Part shown: piece by piece, positions 21,612 to 34,050 of the stretch
Numbering within the stretch: position 1 is the first letter of the stretch
Layout: each line of letters opens with the position of its first letter
Source: Clostridia bacterium
GTDB lineage: Bacteria; Bacillota; Clostridia; TANB77; CAG-465
Length of the DNA: 64,000 nucleotides
Assembly (NCBI GenBank): GCA_051886195.1
Contig: JBJEXW010000005.1
Coordinates: 1,360 to 65,359 of the forward strand
Reading direction: 5' to 3'
The notes under the pieces: model-generated
Databases searched by the model: none
Told to the model about the DNA's origin: nothing
The model's input: only the letters and a program-made list of their open reading frames with translations
Program-made: the position numbers and the translations under genes

Positions 21612-22865
21612 ATGAATATAGAAGAAAAAGCAACGTATTGTCTTAGTTGTAAAAATAAAAATTGTATGAAAGGATGTCCATTATCTAACGATATTACGGA
21701 TACAATAAAATTTGTAAAAGAAGAAGATTATACTAAGGCATTTGAAAAAATTACACAGACAACAATATTATCTAGTATTTGTGGTAGAATTTGTCCACAT
21801 ACTAAACAATGTCAAGGAAGTTGTGTTAGGGGAATAAGAGGAGAAAGTGTAGAAATAGGAGAAATTGAAGCTTTTGTTGGAGATTACGGACTAGATAATA
21901 ATATAGAAATTAAAAATTTAAGTGAATATAAAGAACTAGACAAAAGTGTAGCTGTAATTGGCAGTGGTCCTTGCGGTATAACATGTGCTGCAACATTAAA
22001 AAGACTTGGTATAAATAAAGTAGATTTATATGAAAAAAAATCATACTTAGGCGGGCTTTTAGTACATGGCATACCAGAGTTTAGATTACCTAAAAGTATT
22101 GTAAAAAAAGTATATGAAAAAATAATAAATCTTGGAATAGATGTTAAAAACAATATGGAGCTTGGTAAAAATATTGATTTAGAAGATTTGAAATCTAAAT
22201 ATGATGCTGTTTTTATAGCTATTGGAGCCAATAAATCATCTAAAATGAATATAGATGGAGAAGGTCTTATAGGTGTATATGGTGGAAATGAGTTATTAGA
22301 ATATAAAAATTATCCGGATTTTAATGGGAAGAGTGTGGCAGTAATTGGCGGAGGAAATGTTGCAATGGATGCTTCTAGAACTATAAAAAAACTAGGAGCA
22401 GATCATGTATATGTTATTTATAGGAGAGCTGAAGAACAAATGCCAGCAGAGAAAAAAGAAATAAAAGACGCAAAAGCTGAAGGTATTGAGTTTAGATTTT
22501 TAAATAATATTGTAAAGATATTAGGTAAGGATAAAGTTGAAAAAATAGAATGTATAAAAACAGAGCTAATATATGAAGAAGGAAAGAGGCCTTATCCAGT
22601 AAATATAGAAAATTCAAATTATACTTTAGATATGGATTATGTAGTAATGGCAATAGGCTCTTGTCTTGAAAAAAATGTTATGGATGGTTTAGAAAAGAAT
22701 GAATGGGGAAAAATTAAGATAGATGAAAATTATAGGACTAATATAGAAAATGTATATGCAGCTGGAGATGCAGCTGGAATAAAATCTACAGTGGCTTGGG
22801 CTAGTTGTTCTGGAAGAGAAGCTGCTAAGAAAATATATAATGACTTAAAGGAAAAAAATAAATGA
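21612..22865 (+). CDS. GltD/NfnB-like NAD(P)H-dependent Fe-S flavoprotein
   Basis: CLSC...CMKGCP, CGRICPHTKQCQGSC, GSGPCG, GGGNVAMD, VYAAGD. Confidence 0.88.
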   Translation: MNIEEKATYCLSCKNKNCMKGCPLSNDITDTIKFVKEEDYTKAFEKITQTTILSSICGRICPHTKQCQGSCVRGIRGESVEIGEIEAFVGDYGLDNNIEIKNLSEYKELDKSVAVIGSGPCGITCAATLKRLGINKVDLYEKKSYLGGLLVHGIPEFRLPKSIVKKVYEKIINLGIDVKNNMELGKNIDLEDLKSKYDAVFIAIGANKSSKMNIDGEGLIGVYGGNELLEYKNYPDFNGKSVAVIGGGNVAMDASRTIKKLGADHVYVIYRRAEEQMPAEKKEIKDAKAEGIEFRFLNNIVKILGKDKVEKIECIKTELIYEEGKRPYPVNIENSNYTLDMDYVVMAIGSCLEKNVMDGLEKNEWGKIKIDENYRTNIENVYAAGDAAGIKSTVAWASCSGREAAKKIYNDLKEKNK

Positions 22866-23446
22866 ATAAAAATATTATAGAAAATAATCTAAAAACAAAA
22901 ATAATTGGAAAAGAAATAGTATGTTATGATATAATTGATTCAACTCAAGAAGAAGTTAAAAGAAATAGTTCTCTTGAAAATGGTACAGTAATAATTGCTG
23001 AAAGGCAAACTAAAGGTAAGGGAACTCATGGGCGTGTTTGGTATACAGATACAGAATATAAAAACATTGCAATGTCTCTTATACTTTTTCCTGAATGTAA
23101 AATTTCTAAATTAAAAGAAATTACAATTATTATAGCAAAATGTATAGTTAGAACATTTGAAAAGTTATACAATTTAAATCTCGAAATAAAGGAACCAAAT
23201 GATATAGTATTTAATAGCAAGAAAATAGGCGGTATTCTTGTTGAGTCAAAACTAGTCGGTGAGATAGTAAAAAAATTATATATTGGAATCGGAATAAATA
23301 TATTACAACAAAATTTTAATTCTAATATAGAAAATGTTGCTTCATCTATATTAAATGAGTTTAATATAGAGTGTAACAGAGAAAAAATAATTGCTGAATT
23401 TTTTAATATATTTGAAAAAGAATATTTGAAATTATTGGAGGATTAG
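22862..23446 (+). CDS. birA: Biotin-protein ligase without a DNA-binding HTH
   Basis: IDSTQ, AERQTKGKGTHGRVW, IKEPNDI, KKIGGIL, IGIGINI. Confidence 0.88.
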   Translation: MNKNIIENNLKTKIIGKEIVCYDIIDSTQEEVKRNSSLENGTVIIAERQTKGKGTHGRVWYTDTEYKNIAMSLILFPECKISKLKEITIIIAKCIVRTFEKLYNLNLEIKEPNDIVFNSKKIGGILVESKLVGEIVKKLYIGIGINILQQNFNSNIENVASSILNEFNIECNREKIIAEFFNIFEKEYLKLLED

Positions 23447-23447
23447 T

Positions 23448-24017
23448 ATGAATAGAACAAAGAGAAAAATATTTGAGACATCAATGGATTTGTTTGCAAA
23501 AAAAGGGTATGATGCCACTAGTATTGAAGAGATAACTTCTGTTGTTGGAATAGCAAAAGGAACTTTATATTATCATTTTTCAAGTAAAGAAGAAATATTA
23601 GAATTTTTAATAGCAGAAGGAATGAAACTTTTAAAACACAGCTTAGAATTAAAAAGTAGAATTGCAAATACGTTTGAAGAAAAAGTTCATGCTATGATAC
23701 TTGTCGAAGTAAAGGTTGTAGATAAATATGAGAGTCTAATTAATCTTATTATGAATGAGTTTTGTGGCGATGGAAAAAGAAATGAAAAATGTAGAGAATG
23801 TGTTTATGAGTGCGTAGATGTTATTGAGAATGTATTAAAAAACGGCATAGAAAATGGAGATATAAAAGAATGTGATACTAGAGCAGTAGCTTTTGAAATT
23901 TTTGGGGTTATTTGTTCTGGTGTTATGCTTAGATACGAAAATAATAAGAAGATAGATATTGGAGCAACAGCAAAAAAATTTAGTAATATAGTTATTAATG
24001 GAATATTAGAGAGATAA
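23448..24017 (+). CDS. TetR/AcrR family transcriptional regulator
   Basis: LFAKKGYDATSIEEIT...GIAKGTLYYHFSSKEEI HTH. Confidence 0.93.
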   Translation: MNRTKRKIFETSMDLFAKKGYDATSIEEITSVVGIAKGTLYYHFSSKEEILEFLIAEGMKLLKHSLELKSRIANTFEEKVHAMILVEVKVVDKYESLINLIMNEFCGDGKRNEKCRECVYECVDVIENVLKNGIENGDIKECDTRAVAFEIFGVICSGVMLRYENNKKIDIGATAKKFSNIVINGILER

Positions 24018-24106: not shown

Positions 24107-24159
24107 GTTAGTGATTTTAAGAAAAGTTTAGTATAAACTAATTATAGTTGGAGGTAAAT

Positions 24160-25080
24160 ATGAATTCTTTTAATATAAAAGCAACAGGAAAATATGTTCC
24201 AAAAAGAATTGTATATAATAAAATTTTAGAAGAAGAAAATAATTTAGAAAATGGCTATATATACAAAAGAACTGGTATAGAAAAAAGGTTTTACTCAAAT
24301 GAAGAAACATTAGAAGATTTAGCTATAAATGCTGTTAAAGATATGTTAGCAAAATATAAAGATGTAAATATTTATGATCTTGATATGATTATTGTTGCAT
24401 CTACTTCATATACAAATATAATGCCTTCACTTTCTTTTAAAATTCAAAAATATTTTGAAATACAAGATTGTATATGTATGGATATATTAGCAGGTTGTAG
24501 TGGATATATAAACGCTATAGATGTAGCGCAAAAATATATTAAAACTTCTTGTGTAAAAAATGCAATAGTAATTGGAGCAGATATATTGTCTAGAAATAAT
24601 TATGAAAACATTAACACTAAAATGCTATTTGGAGATGGAGCTGGAGTTATATATTTTGAAAAATCAGATTTACCAAAAAAGTATTTTAGTAAAATATGTA
24701 GCTATGAAGATAGAGATAATATTTTAAGCTGTAATATGAATCATGATTTGTATATGAATGGAAAAGAAGTATATAAATTTGCTACAACAAAGACAATAGA
24801 AAATCTAAATGAAGTTTTAGATATTAGCAAAACAAAAATTGAGGAAATAAAATTTGTTATTCCACATCAATCTAATATAAGAATAATTGAAAAAATTAGT
24901 AAAAAGACAAATGCAAGAATATATACAAATATAAGTGAATATGGGAATACATTTTGTGCAAGTATTCCAATAGCTATTGATGAATTATTCTCTTCTAAAA
25001 CAATTTGTGAAGAAGATAAGATTATATTGTTAGGATATGGTGGAGGATTAAATTTAGGAAGTATATTAATGGAGGTATAA
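24160..25080 (+). CDS. fabH: 3-oxoacyl-ACP synthase III
   Basis: Cys-His-Asn triad in AGCSG, PHQSN and GNTFCASIP; start at 24160 by RBS. Confidence 0.9.
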   Translation: MNSFNIKATGKYVPKRIVYNKILEEENNLENGYIYKRTGIEKRFYSNEETLEDLAINAVKDMLAKYKDVNIYDLDMIIVASTSYTNIMPSLSFKIQKYFEIQDCICMDILAGCSGYINAIDVAQKYIKTSCVKNAIVIGADILSRNNYENINTKMLFGDGAGVIYFEKSDLPKKYFSKICSYEDRDNILSCNMNHDLYMNGKEVYKFATTKTIENLNEVLDISKTKIEEIKFVIPHQSNIRIIEKISKKTNARIYTNISEYGNTFCASIPIAIDELFSSKTICEEDKIILLGYGGGLNLGSILMEV

Positions 25081-25081
25081 A

Positions 25082-26005
25082 ATGAAAATCGCTTTTTTAT
25101 TCCCTGGCCAGGGATCACAAAGTGTTGGAATGTGTAAAGACATTTATGATAAATACAAAGAGGCAAGAGATGTTTATGATAAATCAAGCAAAATATTGAA
25201 TAGAAATATTCCAAATCTTTGTTTTAATTCAACTCAAGAAGAATTAAATAATACAATTAATACACAGGTTGCAATACTTGTAAGTTCTCTTGCAATATGT
25301 AATGTTTTAAATAAATATAATATTGTTCCAGATGTTTGTGCAGGTCTAAGTTTAGGAGAATACACTGCTTTAATTCAAGCAGGATATTTAGATTTTGAAG
25401 ATGGATTAAAACTTGTAGAAAAACGTGGAAGTATAATGCAAGAATACAATTCAGATAAATATATGATGGCAGCAGTTGTAGGATTAGAAAGTAGTATAAT
25501 AGAAAAAATATGTAATGAAACAGAAGGCTTTATTGTCCCAGCAAATTATAATTATTCAATGCAGACTGTTATATCAGGAGAAAAAGATGCTATTTTAAAA
25601 GCAACAGAAAAATTAAAAGAAGCTGGAGCTAAAAAGGTAATTGAATTAAATACATCTGGACCTTTTCATACTATAAAATTAAATGAGGCAAGCCTAAAAT
25701 TAAAAAATGAAATTGAAAATGTTAGTTTTAGGCATGGTAATATTAGAGTATTAAAAAATTTAGATGCTACAGAATATAGCGAAAATGAAGATTATGAAAA
25801 AACTTTATCAACACATATGGTTAGTCCTGTAAGAATGGATAAAATAATATCTAGTTTAGATAAAGAAAACGTGGATTTATATGTTGAAGTTGGACCAGGA
25901 AGAGCTCTTGGGGGATTTGTAAGAAAAGAGCTAGATAATGCAAAAGTAATAAGCGTAAATAGTGTTGACAGTTTAAATAAATTATTAGAATTAGTGAAGG
26001 AGTAG
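25082..26005 (+). CDS. fabD: Malonyl-CoA:ACP transacylase
   Basis: FPGQGSQ, GLSLGEY, SGPFH. Confidence 0.96.
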   Translation: MKIAFLFPGQGSQSVGMCKDIYDKYKEARDVYDKSSKILNRNIPNLCFNSTQEELNNTINTQVAILVSSLAICNVLNKYNIVPDVCAGLSLGEYTALIQAGYLDFEDGLKLVEKRGSIMQEYNSDKYMMAAVVGLESSIIEKICNETEGFIVPANYNYSMQTVISGEKDAILKATEKLKEAGAKKVIELNTSGPFHTIKLNEASLKLKNEIENVSFRHGNIRVLKNLDATEYSENEDYEKTLSTHMVSPVRMDKIISSLDKENVDLYVEVGPGRALGGFVRKELDNAKVISVNSVDSLNKLLELVKE

Positions 26006-26011
26006 ATTAAT

Positions 26012-26752
26012 ATGGAAGATAATAAAGTAGCCCTTGTTACAGGCGGTACTAGAGGAATAGGAAGAAAGATAGCAGAAAAATTTGCAGAAAATGGATATGA
26101 TTTAGTTTTAAATTATGTATCAGATAATGTGGATTTAGAAGCTATTAATGAAGCTTTTAAAAAGTATAATAATAGTGTGCTAATTTTAAAAGCAGATGTT
26201 TCAAAGTATGAAGAATGCGAAAATTTAGTTAAAGAGGCAATTAATAAATTTGGAAAAGTAGATGTTCTTGTTAATAATGCAGGAATTACAAAGGATGGCT
26301 TAATTGCTATGATGAAAGAGGAAAATTTTAGTAAAGTAATGGATGTAAACTTAAAAGGAACATTTAATATGTGCAGAAATTTAGTACCATATATGATGAA
26401 AAAGAAAAGTGGAAACATTGTAAATATTTCTTCAGTTGTTGGTGTTGTTGGAAATGCTGGACAATCAAATTATGCAGCATCAAAAGCTGGAATAATAGGC
26501 TTTAGCAAATCACTTGCTAAAGAACTTGCTGGCAGAAATATAAGAGTAAATGCTGTTGCACCTGGATTTATAGATACAGATATGACAAGTGTTTTAACAG
26601 ATAAAGTTAAGGAGAATATTTATTCGCAAATTCCACTAAAACGTATGGGAGAAGCAAAAGAAGTAGCAAATGTTGTATATTTTCTTTCAAGTGAAGAAAG
26701 TTCATATATAACTGGTCAGGTAATAAATGTAGATGGTGGAATGGTAATGTAG
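26012..26752 (+). CDS. fabG: 3-oxoacyl-ACP reductase
   Basis: TGGTRGIG, NNAGIT, YAASK, VDGGM. Confidence 0.96.
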   Translation: MEDNKVALVTGGTRGIGRKIAEKFAENGYDLVLNYVSDNVDLEAINEAFKKYNNSVLILKADVSKYEECENLVKEAINKFGKVDVLVNNAGITKDGLIAMMKEENFSKVMDVNLKGTFNMCRNLVPYMMKKKSGNIVNISSVVGVVGNAGQSNYAASKAGIIGFSKSLAKELAGRNIRVNAVAPGFIDTDMTSVLTDKVKENIYSQIPLKRMGEAKEVANVVYFLSSEESSYITGQVINVDGGMVM

Positions 26753-26763
26753 GAGGATTAGTA

Positions 26764-27996
26764 ATGAATAAGAGAGTTGTAATAACAGGAATGGGAGCTA
26801 TAACTCCTATAGGAAATAATGTAAATGAGCTATTTAAAGGAATTGTAGAGTGTAAATGTGGTATAGATGATATTACACTTTTTGATGCAAAAGATTTTAA
26901 AGTAAAGCTTGCAGCTGAAGTAAAAGGATATAATCCAGAAGAATATCTAGATAGGAGAGCAGCTAAAAGAATGGATAGATTTACACAATTTGGAGTAATT
27001 GCAGCAAGAGAAGCTATGAAAGATAGCAGATTAAATAATGAAAATATAGATATGGAAAAAGTTGGTGTAATAGTGAGTTCTGGAATAGGTGGACTTAAGA
27101 CAATAGAGGAGCAAAACATTAATTTAAATCAAAAAGGTTCAGATAAAGTATCACCCATGTATATACCAATGGCAATTTCAAATATGGCTGCAGGTAATAT
27201 TGCAATAGACTTAGGAATAAAAGGTGAATCTTCTTGTATTGTAACAGCCTGTGCAAGTGGAACTCATTCAATAGGTGAAGCGTTTAGATTAATTAGACAT
27301 GGATATCAAGAGGCAGTTTTATGCGGTGGCTGTGAAGCTTCAATTACGCCTTCAGGTATTGCCGGATTTACTACAATAAAAGCTTTAAACACTACATCAG
27401 ATAAAACTCGTGCAAGTACTCCTTGGGATAAAGAAAGAGCTGGTTTTGTTATGGGTGAAGGTGCAGGAGTTCTTGTATTAGAAGAACTTGAACATGCTAT
27501 AAATAGAGGAGCAAAAATTTATGCTGAAGTGGTTGGATATGGTGCATCATCAGATGCTTATCATATAACTTCTCCGGCTCCAGGTGGAGAAGGTGGTGCA
27601 AGAGCAATGATTAATGCTATTAAAGATGCAAATATCTCTTCTGATGATATAACATATATAAATGCTCACGGAACATCAACACATTTAAATGATTTATATG
27701 AAACACAAGCAATAAAAACAGCTTTTAAAAATACAGATAAATTATATGTAAGCTCAACAAAAGGTCATACTGGACATTTACTTGGAGCAGCTGGAGCTGT
27801 AGAGGCAATTATTTGTGCAAAAGCAATTGAAGAAAATGTTGTTCCGCCTACTATAGGATATAAAGTTCCAGATGAAGAATGCGATTTAAATATTGTACCT
27901 AATAAGCCAATTAAATCAGAAATAAAATATGCAATGTCAAACTCACTTGGTTTTGGTGGACATAATAGCAGTGTAATATTTAAAAAATACGAATAA
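26764..27996 (+). CDS. fabF: 3-oxoacyl-ACP synthase II
   Basis: TACASG, NAHGTST, GHLLGAAG, NSLGFGGHN. Confidence 0.97.
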   Translation: MNKRVVITGMGAITPIGNNVNELFKGIVECKCGIDDITLFDAKDFKVKLAAEVKGYNPEEYLDRRAAKRMDRFTQFGVIAAREAMKDSRLNNENIDMEKVGVIVSSGIGGLKTIEEQNINLNQKGSDKVSPMYIPMAISNMAAGNIAIDLGIKGESSCIVTACASGTHSIGEAFRLIRHGYQEAVLCGGCEASITPSGIAGFTTIKALNTTSDKTRASTPWDKERAGFVMGEGAGVLVLEELEHAINRGAKIYAEVVGYGASSDAYHITSPAPGGEGGARAMINAIKDANISSDDITYINAHGTSTHLNDLYETQAIKTAFKNTDKLYVSSTKGHTGHLLGAAGAVEAIICAKAIEENVVPPTIGYKVPDEECDLNIVPNKPIKSEIKYAMSNSLGFGGHNSSVIFKKYE

Positions 27997-28026
27997 TAAA
28001 AGAAGAAAGGAGATAGAAGCGTAGCT

Positions 28027-28452
28027 ATGGAGTATGAACAAATAAAGAAAATAATAAATGACATGAGTCAATCACAACTTAATAGTTTAAACATAGAATT
28101 TCCAGATGGAGCAAAAATAAGTTTAACGAAAGATAGTAATATAACTTCAAAAGTGGAAAGTCCATTAATTATAAAAGATAATAAAGAGATAGTTAAAGAA
28201 GAAATAGTTGATGAAGTTAAAAACATAGTAAAATCACCAATGGTTGGAACTTTCTATCTTAAACCAGCTCCAGATAAAGAAGAATTTGTTAAAGTTGGAG
28301 ATAAAGTGGAAAAAGGTCAAGTATTATGCATTATTGAAGCTATGAAATTAATGAATGAAATAGAATCTGAATATGATGGTGAAATTGTAGAAATTTGTGT
28401 AAATAACGAAGAAATGGTAGATTATGGGAAACCATTATTTAAGATAAAATAG
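28027..28452 (+). CDS. accB: Biotin carboxyl carrier protein
   Basis: [15 protein letters not shown] biotinylation site. Confidence 0.95.
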
Positions 28453-28465
28453 GAGGAAATATATA

Positions 28466-28888
28466 ATGTTAGATATAGAGGGAATAATGAAGATAATACC
28501 ACAAAGAGCTCCTTTCTTAATGATAGATAGAGTGGAGAGCTTTGAAGCAGGAAAGAATTGTGTAGCATATAAAAATGTATGTATAAATGAGCCATATTTT
28601 CAAGGGCATTTCCCTTCAAAACCAATCATGCCAGGAGTATTAATCGTTGAAGCGTTAGCTCAAGCAGGTGCTGTAGCAATTTTATCTAAAGAAGAAAATA
28701 AAGGAAAAAATGCATTATTTGGTGGAATAGATAAATTGAGGTTTAAAAAACAAGTAGTACCAGGAGATACATTAAAATTAGAAGTTAATATTATTAAAGA
28801 AAAAGGACCTATTGGTATAGGAGAAGCAACAGCATTTGTTAATGATAAAATAGTAGCTAAAGGTGAGCTAACATTTGCAGTAGTATAG
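28466..28888 (+). CDS. fabZ: 3-hydroxyacyl-ACP dehydratase
   Basis: GHFP...[21 protein letters not shown]. Confidence 0.95.
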
Positions 28889-28898
28889 GAGAAAAAAT

Positions 28899-30242
28899 AT
28901 GTTAAGAAAGGTATTAATAGCAAATAGGGGAGAAATAGCAGTAAGGATTATTAGAGCGTGTAAAGAAATGAATATAAAGACTGTTGCTGTATATTCTGAA
29001 GCAGATAAAGAAGCTTTACATGTAAAATTAGCAGATGAAGCATATTGTATTGGACCAGCACAAGCAACTAAAAGTTATTTAAATGAAAAAAATATTCTTG
29101 AAGCGGCAGTTTTAAGTGAGGCAGATAGTATTCATCCAGGATTTGGATTTTTAGCTGAAAATTCAAAATTTGCTAAGATGTGTGAAGAATGTAATCTTAA
29201 ATTTATAGGTCCATCATATAAAACTATAGAACTAATGGGTAATAAAATAAACAGTAAAAACCTTATGAGAGATAATAATGTTCCTGTAATTGAAGGCTCA
29301 AAAGGTAAAATTAACTCTTTTAAAGATGCAAAAGAACAAGCCACAAAGATTGGCTATCCAATTATTCTTAAAGCTTCTGCAGGAGGCGGAGGAAAAGGCA
29401 TTAGAATTGTATTTAATGAAGAAGACCTAAAAGAAATGTTAGATTTAGTAAAGCAAGAAGCCAGAAATTCTTTTAATGATGACACAATATATATGGAAAA
29501 GTATATTCAAAACCCAAGACATGTTGAAATTCAGATATTATCAGATAAATATAATAATTGTGTATATCTCGGTGAAAGAGATTGCTCTGTGCAAAGAAAC
29601 AATCAGAAAATAATAGAAGAAAGTCCGTCAACAATACTAAATAACTCTTTAAGAAGAGAAATGGGAAAAGCAGCTGTAAGAGCAGCAAAAGCTGCAAATT
29701 ATGAAGGAGCAGGAACAATAGAATTTTTAGTAGACAAAGATAATAATTATTATTTTATGGAAATGAATACAAGAATTCAAGTTGAGCATCCTGTAACTGA
29801 AATGATGACAGGGATAGATATAGTAAAACAGCAATTAAAAATTGCATCAGGATTAAGATTAGATTTATCTCAAGAGAAAATCATTCCAAAAGGCCATAGT
29901 ATAGAATGTAGAATTAACGCAGAAAATCCATATAAAAATTTTATACCATCTCCAGGAAAAATAGAAAAATTGATACTTCCTGGTGGAAATGAAACAAGAA
30001 TTGATACCGCTGTATATGAAGGATATGAAATTCCACCATTTTATGATTCAATGATTGCAAAGGTAATTGTACATGCAAGAAATAGAAATGATGCAATAGC
30101 TAAAATGAATAGAGCATTAAGCGAATGTAAGATTGAAGGTGTAGATACAAACATTAACTTTTTAGAAGACATATTAAATAACTATAAATTTAAAAGTGGT
30201 GAATTTACAACAGCGTTAATTAAAGAGGAGTTTAATTTATGA
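28899..30242 (+). CDS. accC: Biotin carboxylase
   Basis: ANRGEIA, GGGGKG, EMNTRIQVEHPVTE, YDSMIAK. Confidence 0.97.
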   Translation: MLRKVLIANRGEIAVRIIRACKEMNIKTVAVYSEADKEALHVKLADEAYCIGPAQATKSYLNEKNILEAAVLSEADSIHPGFGFLAENSKFAKMCEECNLKFIGPSYKTIELMGNKINSKNLMRDNNVPVIEGSKGKINSFKDAKEQATKIGYPIILKASAGGGGKGIRIVFNEEDLKEMLDLVKQEARNSFNDDTIYMEKYIQNPRHVEIQILSDKYNNCVYLGERDCSVQRNNQKIIEESPSTILNNSLRREMGKAAVRAAKAANYEGAGTIEFLVDKDNNYYFMEMNTRIQVEHPVTEMMTGIDIVKQQLKIASGLRLDLSQEKIIPKGHSIECRINAENPYKNFIPSPGKIEKLILPGGNETRIDTAVYEGYEIPPFYDSMIAKVIVHARNRNDAIAKMNRALSECKIEGVDTNINFLEDILNNYKFKSGEFTTALIKEEFNL

Positions 30243-31051
30243 TAGAGATTAAAAAAGCAGATATACCAGTAGGAAAATGGATAAAATGTCCTAGTTGTAA
30301 AGAAATACTATATAAAGAAGATGTAAAGAATAATTTAAGTATTTGTCCAAAATGTCAAAATTATTTTAGACTTTCAAGTAGAAGAAGAATAGAGCAAGTA
30401 GTAGATAGTGGAACTTTTGAGGAATTTGAACTTAATATTGATACAAAAAATCCACTAGATATGCCAGAATATGTTCAGAAAATAGAGGGATTAAGGCAGA
30501 AAACAGGCTTAAAAGAAGCTGTAAAATGTGGTATTGGAAAAATTAATAATAATGAAGCCATAATTTGTGCAATGGATTCAAATTTTTTTATGGGAAGCAT
30601 GGGATATGTAGTAGGTGAATATATAACGTATTCGTTTGAAAAAGCTATAGAGAAAAATTTACCTATTGTTATTTTTACAGTATCAGGTGGAGCAAGGATG
30701 CAAGAGGGAATAATTTCATTAATGCAAATGGCAAAAACTAGTTCAGTAGTAAATAAATTAAATGATAAAGGACTTTTATACATAAGTGTTTTGACAGATC
30801 CTACTTATGGTGGAGTTACTGCGAGTTTTGCTACTCTTGCAGATGTAATAATTGCTGAGCCTAAAGCTATGGTTGGATTTGCTGGAAAAAGAGTAATTGA
30901 GCAGACAATAAATGAAAAATTACCAGATGAGTTTCAATCATCAGAGTTTTTATTTAATCATGGATTTGTGGATAAAATAGTTGAACGTAAAGATTTAAAA
31001 GATACAATAGCAAAAATAATCACTATGAGTAAGGGGGCTTATAATGGATAA
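30239..31051 (+). CDS. accD: Acetyl-CoA carboxylase carboxyltransferase beta subunit
   Basis: C4 zinc finger, GSMG, SGGARMQEG, GFAGKRVI. Confidence 0.96.
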   Translation: MIEIKKADIPVGKWIKCPSCKEILYKEDVKNNLSICPKCQNYFRLSSRRRIEQVVDSGTFEEFELNIDTKNPLDMPEYVQKIEGLRQKTGLKEAVKCGIGKINNNEAIICAMDSNFFMGSMGYVVGEYITYSFEKAIEKNLPIVIFTVSGGARMQEGIISLMQMAKTSSVVNKLNDKGLLYISVLTDPTYGGVTASFATLADVIIAEPKAMVGFAGKRVIEQTINEKLPDEFQSSEFLFNHGFVDKIVERKDLKDTIAKIITMSKGAYNG

Positions 31052-31841
31052 TATGGCATGGAAGAAAGTACAAATTGCAAGAGAAAAGGATAGACCTACA
31101 GCATTAGACTACATAGAAAATATTTTTGATGAATTTATTGAGTTTCATGGAGATAGAGATTATGCAGAAGATGGAGCAATTGTATGTGGAATAGCTTCGT
31201 TAAATAATGTAAATTATACAATTATTGCTGAACAAAAAGGAAGAGATACAAAAGAAAATATAAAAAGAAATTTTGGAATGCCAAATCCTGAAAGCTATAA
31301 AAAAGCTATTAGAATTATGAAGCAATCAGAAAAATTTAAAAGACCATTAATTACATTTATAGATACTAAAGGTGCATATCCTGGAATAGGTGCAGAAGAA
31401 AGAGGACAAGGACAAGTAATCGCTAAATGTATTGAAACAATGTCAGCATTAAAGATTCCAACAATTTCATATGTAATTGGTGAAGGCTCAAGTGGAGGAG
31501 CTTTAGCAATAGGAGTGGCAGATAGAGTTATGATGCTTGAAAATTCAATATATTCAATTCTGTCTCCTGAAGGATATTCTAGTATACTTTGGAAAGATTC
31601 ATCAAGAAAAGAAGAAGCAGCTGAAAAAATGAGACTTACCGCAAAAGATTTATATGATTTAAAAATAATAGATGAAGTGCTTGAAGAACCAAATGGAAAT
31701 GCAAAAACAGATATTATTAAGATGTCAGAAAGTATAAAAGATAGTATATTCAAAAATATGAAAGAATTAATGAATAAAAAAGAAAAAATTCTCTTAGAGG
31801 ATAGATATAAAAAATATAGGAATATGGGAGGAGAATATTAA
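31044..31841 (+). CDS. accA: Acetyl-CoA carboxylase carboxyltransferase alpha subunit
   Basis: RNFGMPNPE, FIDTKGAYPG, GEGSSGGALA, SILSPEG. Confidence 0.96.
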   Translation: MDNMAWKKVQIAREKDRPTALDYIENIFDEFIEFHGDRDYAEDGAIVCGIASLNNVNYTIIAEQKGRDTKENIKRNFGMPNPESYKKAIRIMKQSEKFKRPLITFIDTKGAYPGIGAEERGQGQVIAKCIETMSALKIPTISYVIGEGSSGGALAIGVADRVMMLENSIYSILSPEGYSSILWKDSSRKEEAAEKMRLTAKDLYDLKIIDEVLEEPNGNAKTDIIKMSESIKDSIFKNMKELMNKKEKILLEDRYKKYRNMGGEY

Positions 31842-32608
31842 TGTTAAAGAAAAAGAAAGTATTAATTATGGGAATTAGGAATAAATGGTCCATTGCTTAT
31901 GGCGCAGCAAAATCTGCATATGAACAGGGAGCAAAATTATATTTTACTTATATGGGAGAGGAAAATAAGGAAAAAATAGAAGAACTAATTAGCGAATTTA
32001 AAGGAGCTAAAGCTTTTGAGTGTGATGTAAGTGATGAACAAAAAGTTGAGGCTTTGTTTTCAAAATTTAAAGCTAAGTATGATAAGTTTGATGCCATCGT
32101 ACATTGTATTGCGCATGCTAACACTCAAGATTTAAGAGGTGAGTTTATATATACAAGTAAAGAAGGATTTTTACATGCTAATGAAGTTAGTGCATATTCT
32201 TTAGTTCTTATTGCAAGAAAAGCAAAAGAAATTGAACTTTTAGGAGAAGGAGGAAGTATTGTTTGCCTTACTTATCATGGATCTACAAAAGTATTTCCAG
32301 GATATAATGTTATGGGAGTTGCAAAAGCTGCATTAGAATCTAGTGTTAGGTATTTAGCTTCAAATTTAGGAGAAGATGGAATAAGAGTTAATGCTGTATC
32401 AGCAGGACCAATAAAAACATTATCTGCAAAGGGAATTCAAAATTTTAGTTCAATACTAGATGTTGTTGAAAAAAGTGCACCTCTTAAAAGAAATGTTACT
32501 ACAATAGAAGTTGGAAATGTAATTAGTTTTTTGTGTAGTCCTCTTTCAAGTTCAATTACTGGTCAAGTTATATATGCAGATAATGGTTACTCAATTATGG
32601 GATTATAG
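31841..32608 (+). CDS. fabI: Enoyl-ACP reductase FabI
   Basis: GIRNKWSIA, YNVMGVAK catalytic motif, SAGPIKTL. Confidence 0.92.
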   Translation: MLKKKKVLIMGIRNKWSIAYGAAKSAYEQGAKLYFTYMGEENKEKIEELISEFKGAKAFECDVSDEQKVEALFSKFKAKYDKFDAIVHCIAHANTQDLRGEFIYTSKEGFLHANEVSAYSLVLIARKAKEIELLGEGGSIVCLTYHGSTKVFPGYNVMGVAKAALESSVRYLASNLGEDGIRVNAVSAGPIKTLSAKGIQNFSSILDVVEKSAPLKRNVTTIEVGNVISFLCSPLSSSITGQVIYADNGYSIMGL

Positions 32609-32616
32609 GAGGAAAA

Positions 32617-33681
32617 ATGAAGTTACCAAAATTAAAAATAGGAGAAAAATTATTGGAAATACCAATAATACAAGGTGGAATGGGAGTTGGTGTATCCCTA
32701 GCAAATTTAGCTGGAAATGTAGCAAAAAATGGTGGCCTTGGAGTTATTTCAAGTGCTCAAATTGGATTTAAGGAAGAAGATTTTGAGACAAATACATATG
32801 AAGCAAATTATAGAGCATTAGAAAAAAATATAAAAAAAGCAAAGAAAATAAGCAATAATAATGGAATGATTGGAGTAAATATAATGTGCGTTACTACCAA
32901 TTATGAAGAAATGGTTAAAAAGGCTGCAGGCGCAGGTGCAGATATAATTATTTCTGGAGCAGGATTACCAAAAAATTTACCGGAGTTGGTTAAAGGATAC
33001 GAAACTAAAATTGCACCAATAGTATCAAGTGCTCGAGCAGCAAATTTAATCTGTAAGTTATGGACAACAAAATATGATTATATTCCAGACATGATTGTAG
33101 TAGAAGGTCCAAAAGCAGGTGGACATTTAGGATTTAACATTGAAGAGTTAAGTAATGAAGAAATAGATATTTTTAATATTACTTCTCAAGTAAGAAATAT
33201 AATAAAACAATATGAAGAAAAATATAATAAACATATTCCAGTAATATCTGCCGGTGGAATATTTGATGGAAAAGATATAGTAAAAGCTCTAAAATATGGT
33301 GCTGATGGAGTTCAAATTGCTACAAAGTTTGTTACTACAAAAGAGTGCGATGCAGATATAAAGTTTAAAGAAGCTTATGTAAGAGCCAAAAAAGAAGACG
33401 TTATTATTATAAAAAGTCCTGTTGGAATGCCTGGCAGAGCAATTAAAAATCATTTTTTAGAAAACCTAAAAGATTATAAATTAACTAAATGTTTTAACTG
33501 CATAAAAACTTGCGATAGAAAAACAATACCATATTGTATAACACAAGCTTTAATCAACTCTGTAACTGGAAACATAGATAATGGTCTTATTTTTTGTGGT
33601 AGTAATGTAGATAAAATAGACAAAATAACAGACGTAAAAACTGTTATAAGCGAATTAATTAAAGAGGCGAATGAATTATGA
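32617..33681 (+). CDS. fabK: FabK/nitronate monooxygenase family flavoprotein
   Basis: IIQGGMGVG, EGPKAGGH, SAGGIFDG, SPVGMPGRA; lies inside the fab operon. Confidence 0.75.
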   Translation: MKLPKLKIGEKLLEIPIIQGGMGVGVSLANLAGNVAKNGGLGVISSAQIGFKEEDFETNTYEANYRALEKNIKKAKKISNNNGMIGVNIMCVTTNYEEMVKKAAGAGADIIISGAGLPKNLPELVKGYETKIAPIVSSARAANLICKLWTTKYDYIPDMIVVEGPKAGGHLGFNIEELSNEEIDIFNITSQVRNIIKQYEEKYNKHIPVISAGGIFDGKDIVKALKYGADGVQIATKFVTTKECDADIKFKEAYVRAKKEDVIIIKSPVGMPGRAIKNHFLENLKDYKLTKCFNCIKTCDRKTIPYCITQALINSVTGNIDNGLIFCGSNVDKIDKITDVKTVISELIKEANEL

Positions 33682-33908
33682 GTAAAAAGATGAATAATAA
33701 TGAATTACTTAAATATGGTGTTGAAAAGCTTGAATTAAGTAATAGTATTTGTACAAAATTAAAATTTAATGAAATTGATACTATAGGTAAGCTTTGTAGT
33801 CATACTAGAAGAGAATTAAGAAATTTAGATTTTGTACAAAGTGATATTCAGTCAATAGTAATTAAATTACAATTAAAAGGATTAGACATAAAAGGAAATG
33901 AATATTAA
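33678..33908 (+). CDS. Stand-alone RNA polymerase alpha C-terminal-domain-like protein
   Basis: LLKYGVEKLELS...LK...IDTIGKL...T..EL...I...L...GL matches the alpha-CTD pattern; overlaps fabK by 4 nt. Confidence 0.7.
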   Translation: MSKKMNNNELLKYGVEKLELSNSICTKLKFNEIDTIGKLCSHTRRELRNLDFVQSDIQSIVIKLQLKGLDIKGNEY

Positions 33909-34050
33909 TATTTAAAAAATGTACTTTAGCTTATGTGCTAAGGTACTTTTTATATATTAAATAACACTTAAAGGAAACTTGATTTTCTTGATATTTAGTC
34001 CTTCGTATGGTATAATCCTCTTGAAAAAAATAATAAGGAGGTTGTGTCTT

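Follow-up and report, generated by a model that had tools for sequence, protein, structure and literature searches.

A stand-alone protein related to the RNA polymerase alpha C-terminal domain, encoded at the end of a fatty acid synthesis operon in a Clostridia bacterium

The terminal gene of a fab/acc operon

The locus described here lies within a 64-kb window (the whole stretch of DNA that was analyzed; 27% G+C) taken from a genome of 1.55 Mb, assembled in 43 contigs with an estimated completeness of 96%, which among public records is closest to gut MAGs labelled as uncultured Clostridia. A series of tightly packed open reading frames, all on the forward strand (24148–33681), comprises fabH, fabD, fabG, fabF, accB, fabZ, accC, accD, accA, fabI and a fabK-like gene. 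Among these, fabI and the FabK-like protein, the latter of the NMO family, were compared with NCBIfam models, and the names given to fabH through accA were assigned from translations and are consistent with the synteny recovered by tblastn. At the head of the cluster, genes encoding a GltD/GltA-like flavoprotein, a BirA ligase lacking the N-terminal HTH and a TetR-family regulator abut one another (21612–24017). The best match of the regulator (23448–24017, forward strand) is a model of a FadR-type fatty acid regulator (NF053878, E 2.8e-17), and because this match falls far below the model cut-off only the family-level assignment to TetR is safe; the protein is a possible local regulator of the cluster. 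At the other end of the series, the FabK-like protein (32617–33681) scores 139 bits against TIGR03151, for which the cut-off is 453, adjoins a good FabI and carries a Cys-rich C-terminal extension (CFNC...C...C); it is a putative enoyl-ACP reductase.

Immediately following the fabK-like gene is a small open reading frame (33678–33908, forward strand, stop codon included) encoding a protein of 76 aa. The start codon of this gene overlaps the fabK-like stop codon in the sequence ATGA (33678–33681, the fabK-like frame ending at 33681), an arrangement which suggests translational coupling of the two genes. The small gene also possesses its own Shine-Dalgarno sequence, AAAGAGG (33661–33667, forward strand), located 10 nt 5' of the ATG, inside the terminal part of the fabK-like coding sequence, and every orthologue is likewise preceded by this motif. 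Downstream, the operon closes with an intrinsic-terminator-like hairpin consisting of a 10-bp stem and a T-run (33921–33953, forward strand); a hairpin followed by a T-run is likewise apparently present 3' of the stop codon in most orthologous loci, the downstream sequences having been judged by eye. Beyond the hairpin, a promoter-like site for the next gene, apt (33988–34016, forward strand; TTGATA, a 17-nt spacer and a TG before TATAAT, with 11 of 12 consensus matches), marks the probable operon boundary. Given the start/stop overlap, the Shine-Dalgarno sequence and the 3' terminator, the small gene is, as far as these signals can be read, the terminal cistron of the fab/acc operon.

The open reading frame at 33678–33908 is a real protein-coding gene under purifying selection. 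Among eight non-identical orthologues, the mean pairwise pN is 0.19 versus a pS of 0.49, and dN/dS averages approximately 0.27 (range 0.13–0.55). The encoded protein has a pI of 9.0 and a net charge of +2.6, and neither it nor four of its relatives returned a match in PHROGs or PADLOC.

An earlier note on this DNA, made from the letters alone, had observed that the fab operon contains no ACP gene and that its only ACP-sized open reading frame lacks the DSL phosphopantetheine motif. Both observations stand: the 76-aa sequence contains neither DSL nor DSLD, and a search of the genome with PF00550 recovered a single ACP gene, located on another contig (C36:25269–25475). For the same reasons, the proposition that the small gene is a misread ACP is rejected. 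The missing gene is without significance, as acpP, with its DSLD motif, is present between tuf and rnc and an operon without it thus leaves no gap in the pathway; in other Clostridia, too, acpP is encoded apart from the fab genes, and no message should be read into its absence here. In a sister family of the same order, one fab operon has fabI and then acpP as its last two genes (genome G037, L048:10723–11016, forward strand), the latter occupying the slot that is held by the alpha-CTD-like gene in this genus.

Homology of the 76-aa protein to the alpha-CTD

[quoted passage not shown] When searched as a single sequence, the protein matches Pfam PF03118 with an E-value of 2.4e-4 and 21.2 bits, just below the cut-off of 23.8, and the last ~70 positions of the NCBIfam rpoA models align to it with an E-value of 6.6e-5. 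Among its relatives, P0032 passes the PF03118 cut-off (25.9 bits) and P0020 has a precomputed PF03118 hit. A search of the PDB with a 16-sequence family profile returned 54 matches at E<=1, 51 of which are RpoA, the best being the B. subtilis alpha-CTD across the whole domain (E 1.2e-7), and family profiles also retrieve the CTD of full-length rpoA genes from other genomes. Consistent with these matches, the AlphaFold2 model of the protein (pLDDT 83.4) is composed of six short helices, the last four of which correspond to alpha-CTD helices 1–4. The top Foldseek hits of this predicted model are all alpha-CTD, with TM-scores of 0.73–0.89 over the top five chains, depending upon normalization, and VIA-align superimposes 66 of 67 residues on the B. 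subtilis alpha-CTD (1z3e_B) with a Z-score of 12.0 and an rmsd of 1.1 Å, followed by a Z-score of 11.8 on E. coli alpha and 8.7 on the best unrelated fold. Together, sequence profiles and predicted fold establish the homology of the 76-aa protein to the alpha-CTD, and the alpha-CTD pattern first recognized by eye is thereby borne out, albeit with a Pfam score below threshold.

Comparison with the characterized domains (PF03118; B. subtilis 1Z3E and 3GFK, E. coli 3K4G and 1LB2) reveals a shared compact helical fold, homology across the whole domain, and conservation of the hydrophobic core and of the final G-L turn. The differences are equally clear. Firstly, the 76-aa protein is untethered: its open reading frame is bounded by the fabK stop codon and its own, and the tether to an alpha N-terminal domain is absent. 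Secondly, the residues of the so-called 265 determinant are replaced, one residue is missing before the second hairpin, and the protein ends in an invariant tail of its own. It is approximately 25% identical to the alpha-CTD of the organism's RpoA, from which a very long branch separates it. The possibility that the gene is the split-off CTD of rpoA, raised in the earlier note, is rejected, as an intact rpoA of 317 aa, whose CTD scores 98.5 bits, lies elsewhere in the genome, in its customary location between rpsD and rplQ. The helix arrangement also resembles that of (HhH)2/SAM-like five-helix domains, including RAD51-paralogue N-terminal domains, NusA AR2 and SAM (Z 5–9), many of which are protein–protein interaction modules; these score clearly below the alpha-CTD, however, and no sequence relationship between them and the 76-aa protein was detected.

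Distribution within the genus and in the wider family

Close orthologues (62–97% identity) are found in 10 of the 50 species that make up the genus, and three more lie on metagenome contigs; in each of these 13 loci, all of which derive from one clade of one genus, a fabK-like gene or fabI lies directly upstream. The linkage to fab genes that the earlier note had proposed to check in relatives is present throughout this set, while the genes downstream differ between species. In one species (G006), fabK has been deleted and the small gene follows fabI; here, 38 nt of the fabK 3' end, Shine-Dalgarno sequence included, have survived in front of the small gene (L031:6464–6503). FabK is accordingly an unlikely partner of the 76-aa protein, the small gene having been kept despite its loss. 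The gene accA was found in 11 of the 50 species and not found in the other 39 of this small-genome genus; most of the species may therefore lack type II fatty acid synthesis and depend upon external fatty acids. Of the 11 species with accA, 10 possess the small gene, and the contig of the eleventh ends inside fabK. In sister families of the order, none of the three fab operons that were inspected has a copy. The conserved gene order shows, at the level of synteny, retention of the gene under selection at the end of the operon; independent recruitment is not demonstrated by these loci, as the 13 are kin and their synteny may trace to one ancestral event.

Beyond the genus, an exhaustive HMMER search returned 731 cluster representatives at E<=1e-3, the best of which are mostly bare domains of 65–85 aa with the common motif LQLxGLxLK. 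The 76-aa protein, being a bare domain with a C-terminal LQLxGLxLK and an acidic residue at the N-terminus of helix 4, bears the marks of this ~70-aa family of low-GC gut Clostridia, with which it shares length, motifs and loss of the DNA-contact residues, and it represents one branch thereof. It differs from other members in that the fab-linked branch lacks the ~90-aa partner gene described below and in that the position behind fabK or fabI is fixed and specific to the branch. Among 301 genomes sampled evenly across the Clostridia, the small form is confined to this order, where it occurs in three genomes, while among 301 genomes of the order itself a family match at E<=1e-9 is present in 37, one of them a 252-aa multi-repeat protein. 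The genomic contexts of the family vary, and include type I restriction-modification genes, a cassette with a gene for a ~90-aa protein, and a position beside ymdB. Judged by these neighborhoods, a link to lipid synthesis is not a general feature of the family. In one genus (g190), where five of five genomes have a match, another branch of the small family is fixed, in the three loci inspected (L086, L088 and L089), between genes for a YmdB-like phosphoesterase and an SSB-family protein.

A tree built for the small family, in which only 74 columns were usable, lacks resolution at its base and identifies no sister group for the fab-linked branch. The branch is likewise unnamed in public sources, and its neighbors in a protein atlas are clusters named only by their PF03118 domain. 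Database entries named only by the domain resemble the 76-aa protein in carrying a free alpha-CTD-like domain apart from rpoA. A phage origin of the small gene is without support, as tblastn against phage and plasmid collections gave no match; IMG/VR contains one locus for cassette-type relatives. In the literature, no published functional study of stand-alone alpha-CTD proteins was found, and they receive no mention in a 2026 review of alpha-like subunits. The new element in the present case is a bare form of the alpha-CTD, DNA-blind to judge from its contact residues, that is chromosomal and fixed at the end of a fatty acid synthesis operon.

The distribution described above bears directly upon the possibility that the gene is a passenger, that is, a member of a patchy accessory family that came to lie behind the fab operon through a single event in the clade's ancestor, and which is functional yet unrelated to lipid synthesis. 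Such a history would agree with the sporadic occurrence of the family within the order and the rarity of the small form across the class, with the mobile-looking or unrelated contexts in which other members reside, and with the sister-family fab operons that lack the gene, including the one that ends with acpP instead. Set against it are the retention of both gene and Shine-Dalgarno sequence when fabK was deleted in G006, the presence of the gene in every assessable fab-bearing species of the genus despite reshuffling of the genes downstream, and the overlap of its start codon with the fabK stop codon. On balance, a passenger gene is considered unlikely, though the possibility is a substantial one.

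DNA-contact residues, conserved surface and probable role

The earlier note had aligned by eye, and found replaced, the positions equivalent to R265 and N268 of E. coli alpha and the NLGKKS loop, and these substitutions were reproduced by HMMER, MAFFT and hmmalign. Specifically, R265 and N268 correspond to S23 and T26 of the 76-aa protein, and the loop from N294 to S299 corresponds to D51-F52-V53-Q54-S55-D56, preceded immediately by a one-residue deletion. None of the residues composing the 265 determinant (R265, N268, C269, G296, K298 and S299) is therefore retained, the equivalents being S23, T26, K27, V53, S55 and D56, and N294 is likewise replaced by Asp. The organism's own RpoA, in contrast, retains R, N, C, G, K and S of the determinant together with NLGKKS. 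Among 104 representatives of the small family, the R265 position is held by Arg in three and the S299 position by Glu or Asp in 85; the commonest residues at the G296 position do not include Gly. These column counts indicate that loss of the DNA-binding determinant is a property of the family as a whole, and from the replaced residues we infer that the 76-aa protein does not bind DNA in the manner of the alpha-CTD.

A different mode of nucleic acid binding may nonetheless be envisaged, in which an HhH-like fold and a Lys-rich N-terminus would allow non-canonical binding of DNA or RNA, the protein serving as a local regulator or a nucleoid-type protein. The basic pI and positive charge are compatible with such a role, as is the relationship of the fold to (HhH)2 domains of RAD51-paralogue and Y-family polymerase type (Z 6–9); furthermore, the TetR-type protein is the only obvious regulator of the operon. 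Opposing this are the replacement of every one of the six canonical DNA contacts, in two cases by Asp, the absence of the hairpin glycine, and the Glu or Asp at the N-terminus of helix 4 that, with 85 of 104 representatives, constitutes a hallmark of the family. The N-terminal tail, moreover, is variable among orthologues and modelled with low confidence. This role for the 76-aa protein is accordingly viewed as improbable.

Conservation among orthologues is concentrated elsewhere. There are 28 invariant columns, mostly within residues 31–76, and the invariant stretch takes in helix 4, the loop that leads into it and the tail GLDIKGNEY. Such a surface is specific to the family rather than alpha-CTD-like, and is probably one that binds protein.

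The specificity of this surface weighs upon the suggestion, put forward in the earlier note, that the protein is a non-DNA-binding decoy: a free domain that mimics the organism's own alpha-CTD and, upon expression of the fab genes, titrates its partners, such as a Spx-family regulator, activators or NusA. In favor of this suggestion are the match of the predicted model to the alpha-CTD fold, the loss of DNA contacts, which a pure protein decoy would allow, and the presence in the genome of a Spx/MgsR-family protein (TIGR01617, 105.7 bits versus a cut-off of 75). The latter, 123 aa in length with a CxxC motif, is encoded beside a phosphofructokinase-like gene (L093:1474–1845, reverse strand; contig C13 of this genome, G000). 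Nine residues of the B. subtilis alpha-CTD contact Spx, namely E254, L256, L258, V260, R261, Y263, N264, K267 and R268 (PMC8501982). The organism's own alpha-CTD keeps eight of these, L258 being Phe, whereas the 76-aa protein keeps four (E254 as E16, L256 as L18, L258 as L20 and K267 as K29), two of which are buried core leucines. The remaining equivalents are N22, S23, C25, T26 and F30, with V260, R261, N264 and R268 all differing, and most of these positions vary among orthologues; that of Y263, which is Cys or Tyr, accords somewhat better with mimicry. The positions that form the E. coli 261 determinant vary as well, and the NusA reading frame of the genome, at 400 aa, looks too short, on the basis of length only, to include the AR1 and AR2 repeats. 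With the DNA determinant gone, the 261 positions variable, fewer than half of the Spx contacts kept, a short NusA, low identity to the organism's own alpha-CTD across a long branch, and a strongly conserved surface that belongs to the family itself, a faithful mimic or decoy is unlikely, and the titration proposed in the earlier note is not upheld.

The reading that we favor, at a confidence somewhat short of even, is that the 76-aa protein is a DNA-blind, protein-binding accessory module co-expressed with the fatty acid synthesis genes. Under this reading the protein would act as a small binding module whose contact surface would be formed by helix 4 with its preceding loop and by the invariant tail, and whose partner would most likely be found in the transcription machinery, either RNA polymerase or a regulator. 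The protein would be made in step with the fatty acid synthesis enzymes, and its level could report, or feed back upon, expression of the operon; coupling to the last fab cistron would tie protein abundance to operon output. In support of such a module are the 28 invariant columns, the unbroken linkage to fab genes, the survival of the gene in G006 and its presence in all 10 assessable accA-bearing species. The wider domain family, in addition, is linked to RNA polymerase through RpoA and RpoB architectures and through a paralogue that overlaps a CarD gene, which makes the transcription machinery the most plausible target. These considerations are tempered by a synteny drawn from one clade of one genus, which may equal a single inherited ancestral insertion, by the unrelated contexts of relatives in the wider family, and by the mildly basic character of the protein, which would also be compatible with nucleic acid binding by a different mode.

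The architectures in question belong to the family matches P0035, P0041 and P0026, which carry the same domain in unusual settings beside the bare small form: an RpoA of 528 aa in which the canonical CTD is accompanied by a further two degenerate CTD-like domains, an RpoB of 1977 aa into which CTD-like repeats are inserted and which also shows a weak DnaJ-domain match below threshold, and a protein of 900 aa bearing approximately 12 tandem PF03118 repeats. The paralogue (genome G003, L072:1471–2186, reverse strand) has a C-terminal tail of NHAKRNT type, and its start falls on the final base of a gene of the CarD family (CarD_TRCF_RID and CarD_C). CarD proteins bind the beta subunit of RNA polymerase.

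A trans-acting accessory subunit or adaptor is a further conceivable role, in which a free, DNA-blind paralogue of the alpha-CTD, produced alongside the fatty acid synthesis enzymes, would dock onto a regulator (the TetR-type repressor, CarD or the Spx-like protein) or onto RNA polymerase and thereby couple membrane-lipid synthesis to transcription; this too is regarded as doubtful. Were the adaptor reading true, the 76-aa protein would be, as far as we are aware, the first functionally defined stand-alone alpha-CTD protein, while a passenger gene would be of value for annotation only. Free copies of the alpha-CTD are widespread in sequence databases, and the gene described here offers a clean test case among them, as it encodes a bare domain with no fused module, lies in a defined operon and hence has a known expression context, and has had its DNA-contact residues replaced, which would narrow the options to protein binding. 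The identity of the partner of the proposed protein-binding module would reveal the role of the large unnamed LQLxGLxLK family, and would tell whether some gut Clostridia link lipid synthesis to transcription through the 76-aa protein.

Within that family, a two-gene cassette is found at 10 or more loci of the same order, including L051:1697–1984 (reverse strand), L077:1722–1988 (reverse strand) and L052:1230–1493 (forward strand), in which a gene for a ~90-aa protein lies immediately upstream of one for a ~70-aa alpha-CTD-like protein, often surrounded by XRE-type, AbrB-like and type I restriction-modification genes. The ~90-aa protein (alignment A4) has no Pfam hit, and no convincing copy of it was found in the present genome. 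In one family member, P0158 (159 aa), the ~90-aa protein and an alpha-CTD-like domain are naturally fused, and on account of this fusion the two proteins of the cassette probably work together.
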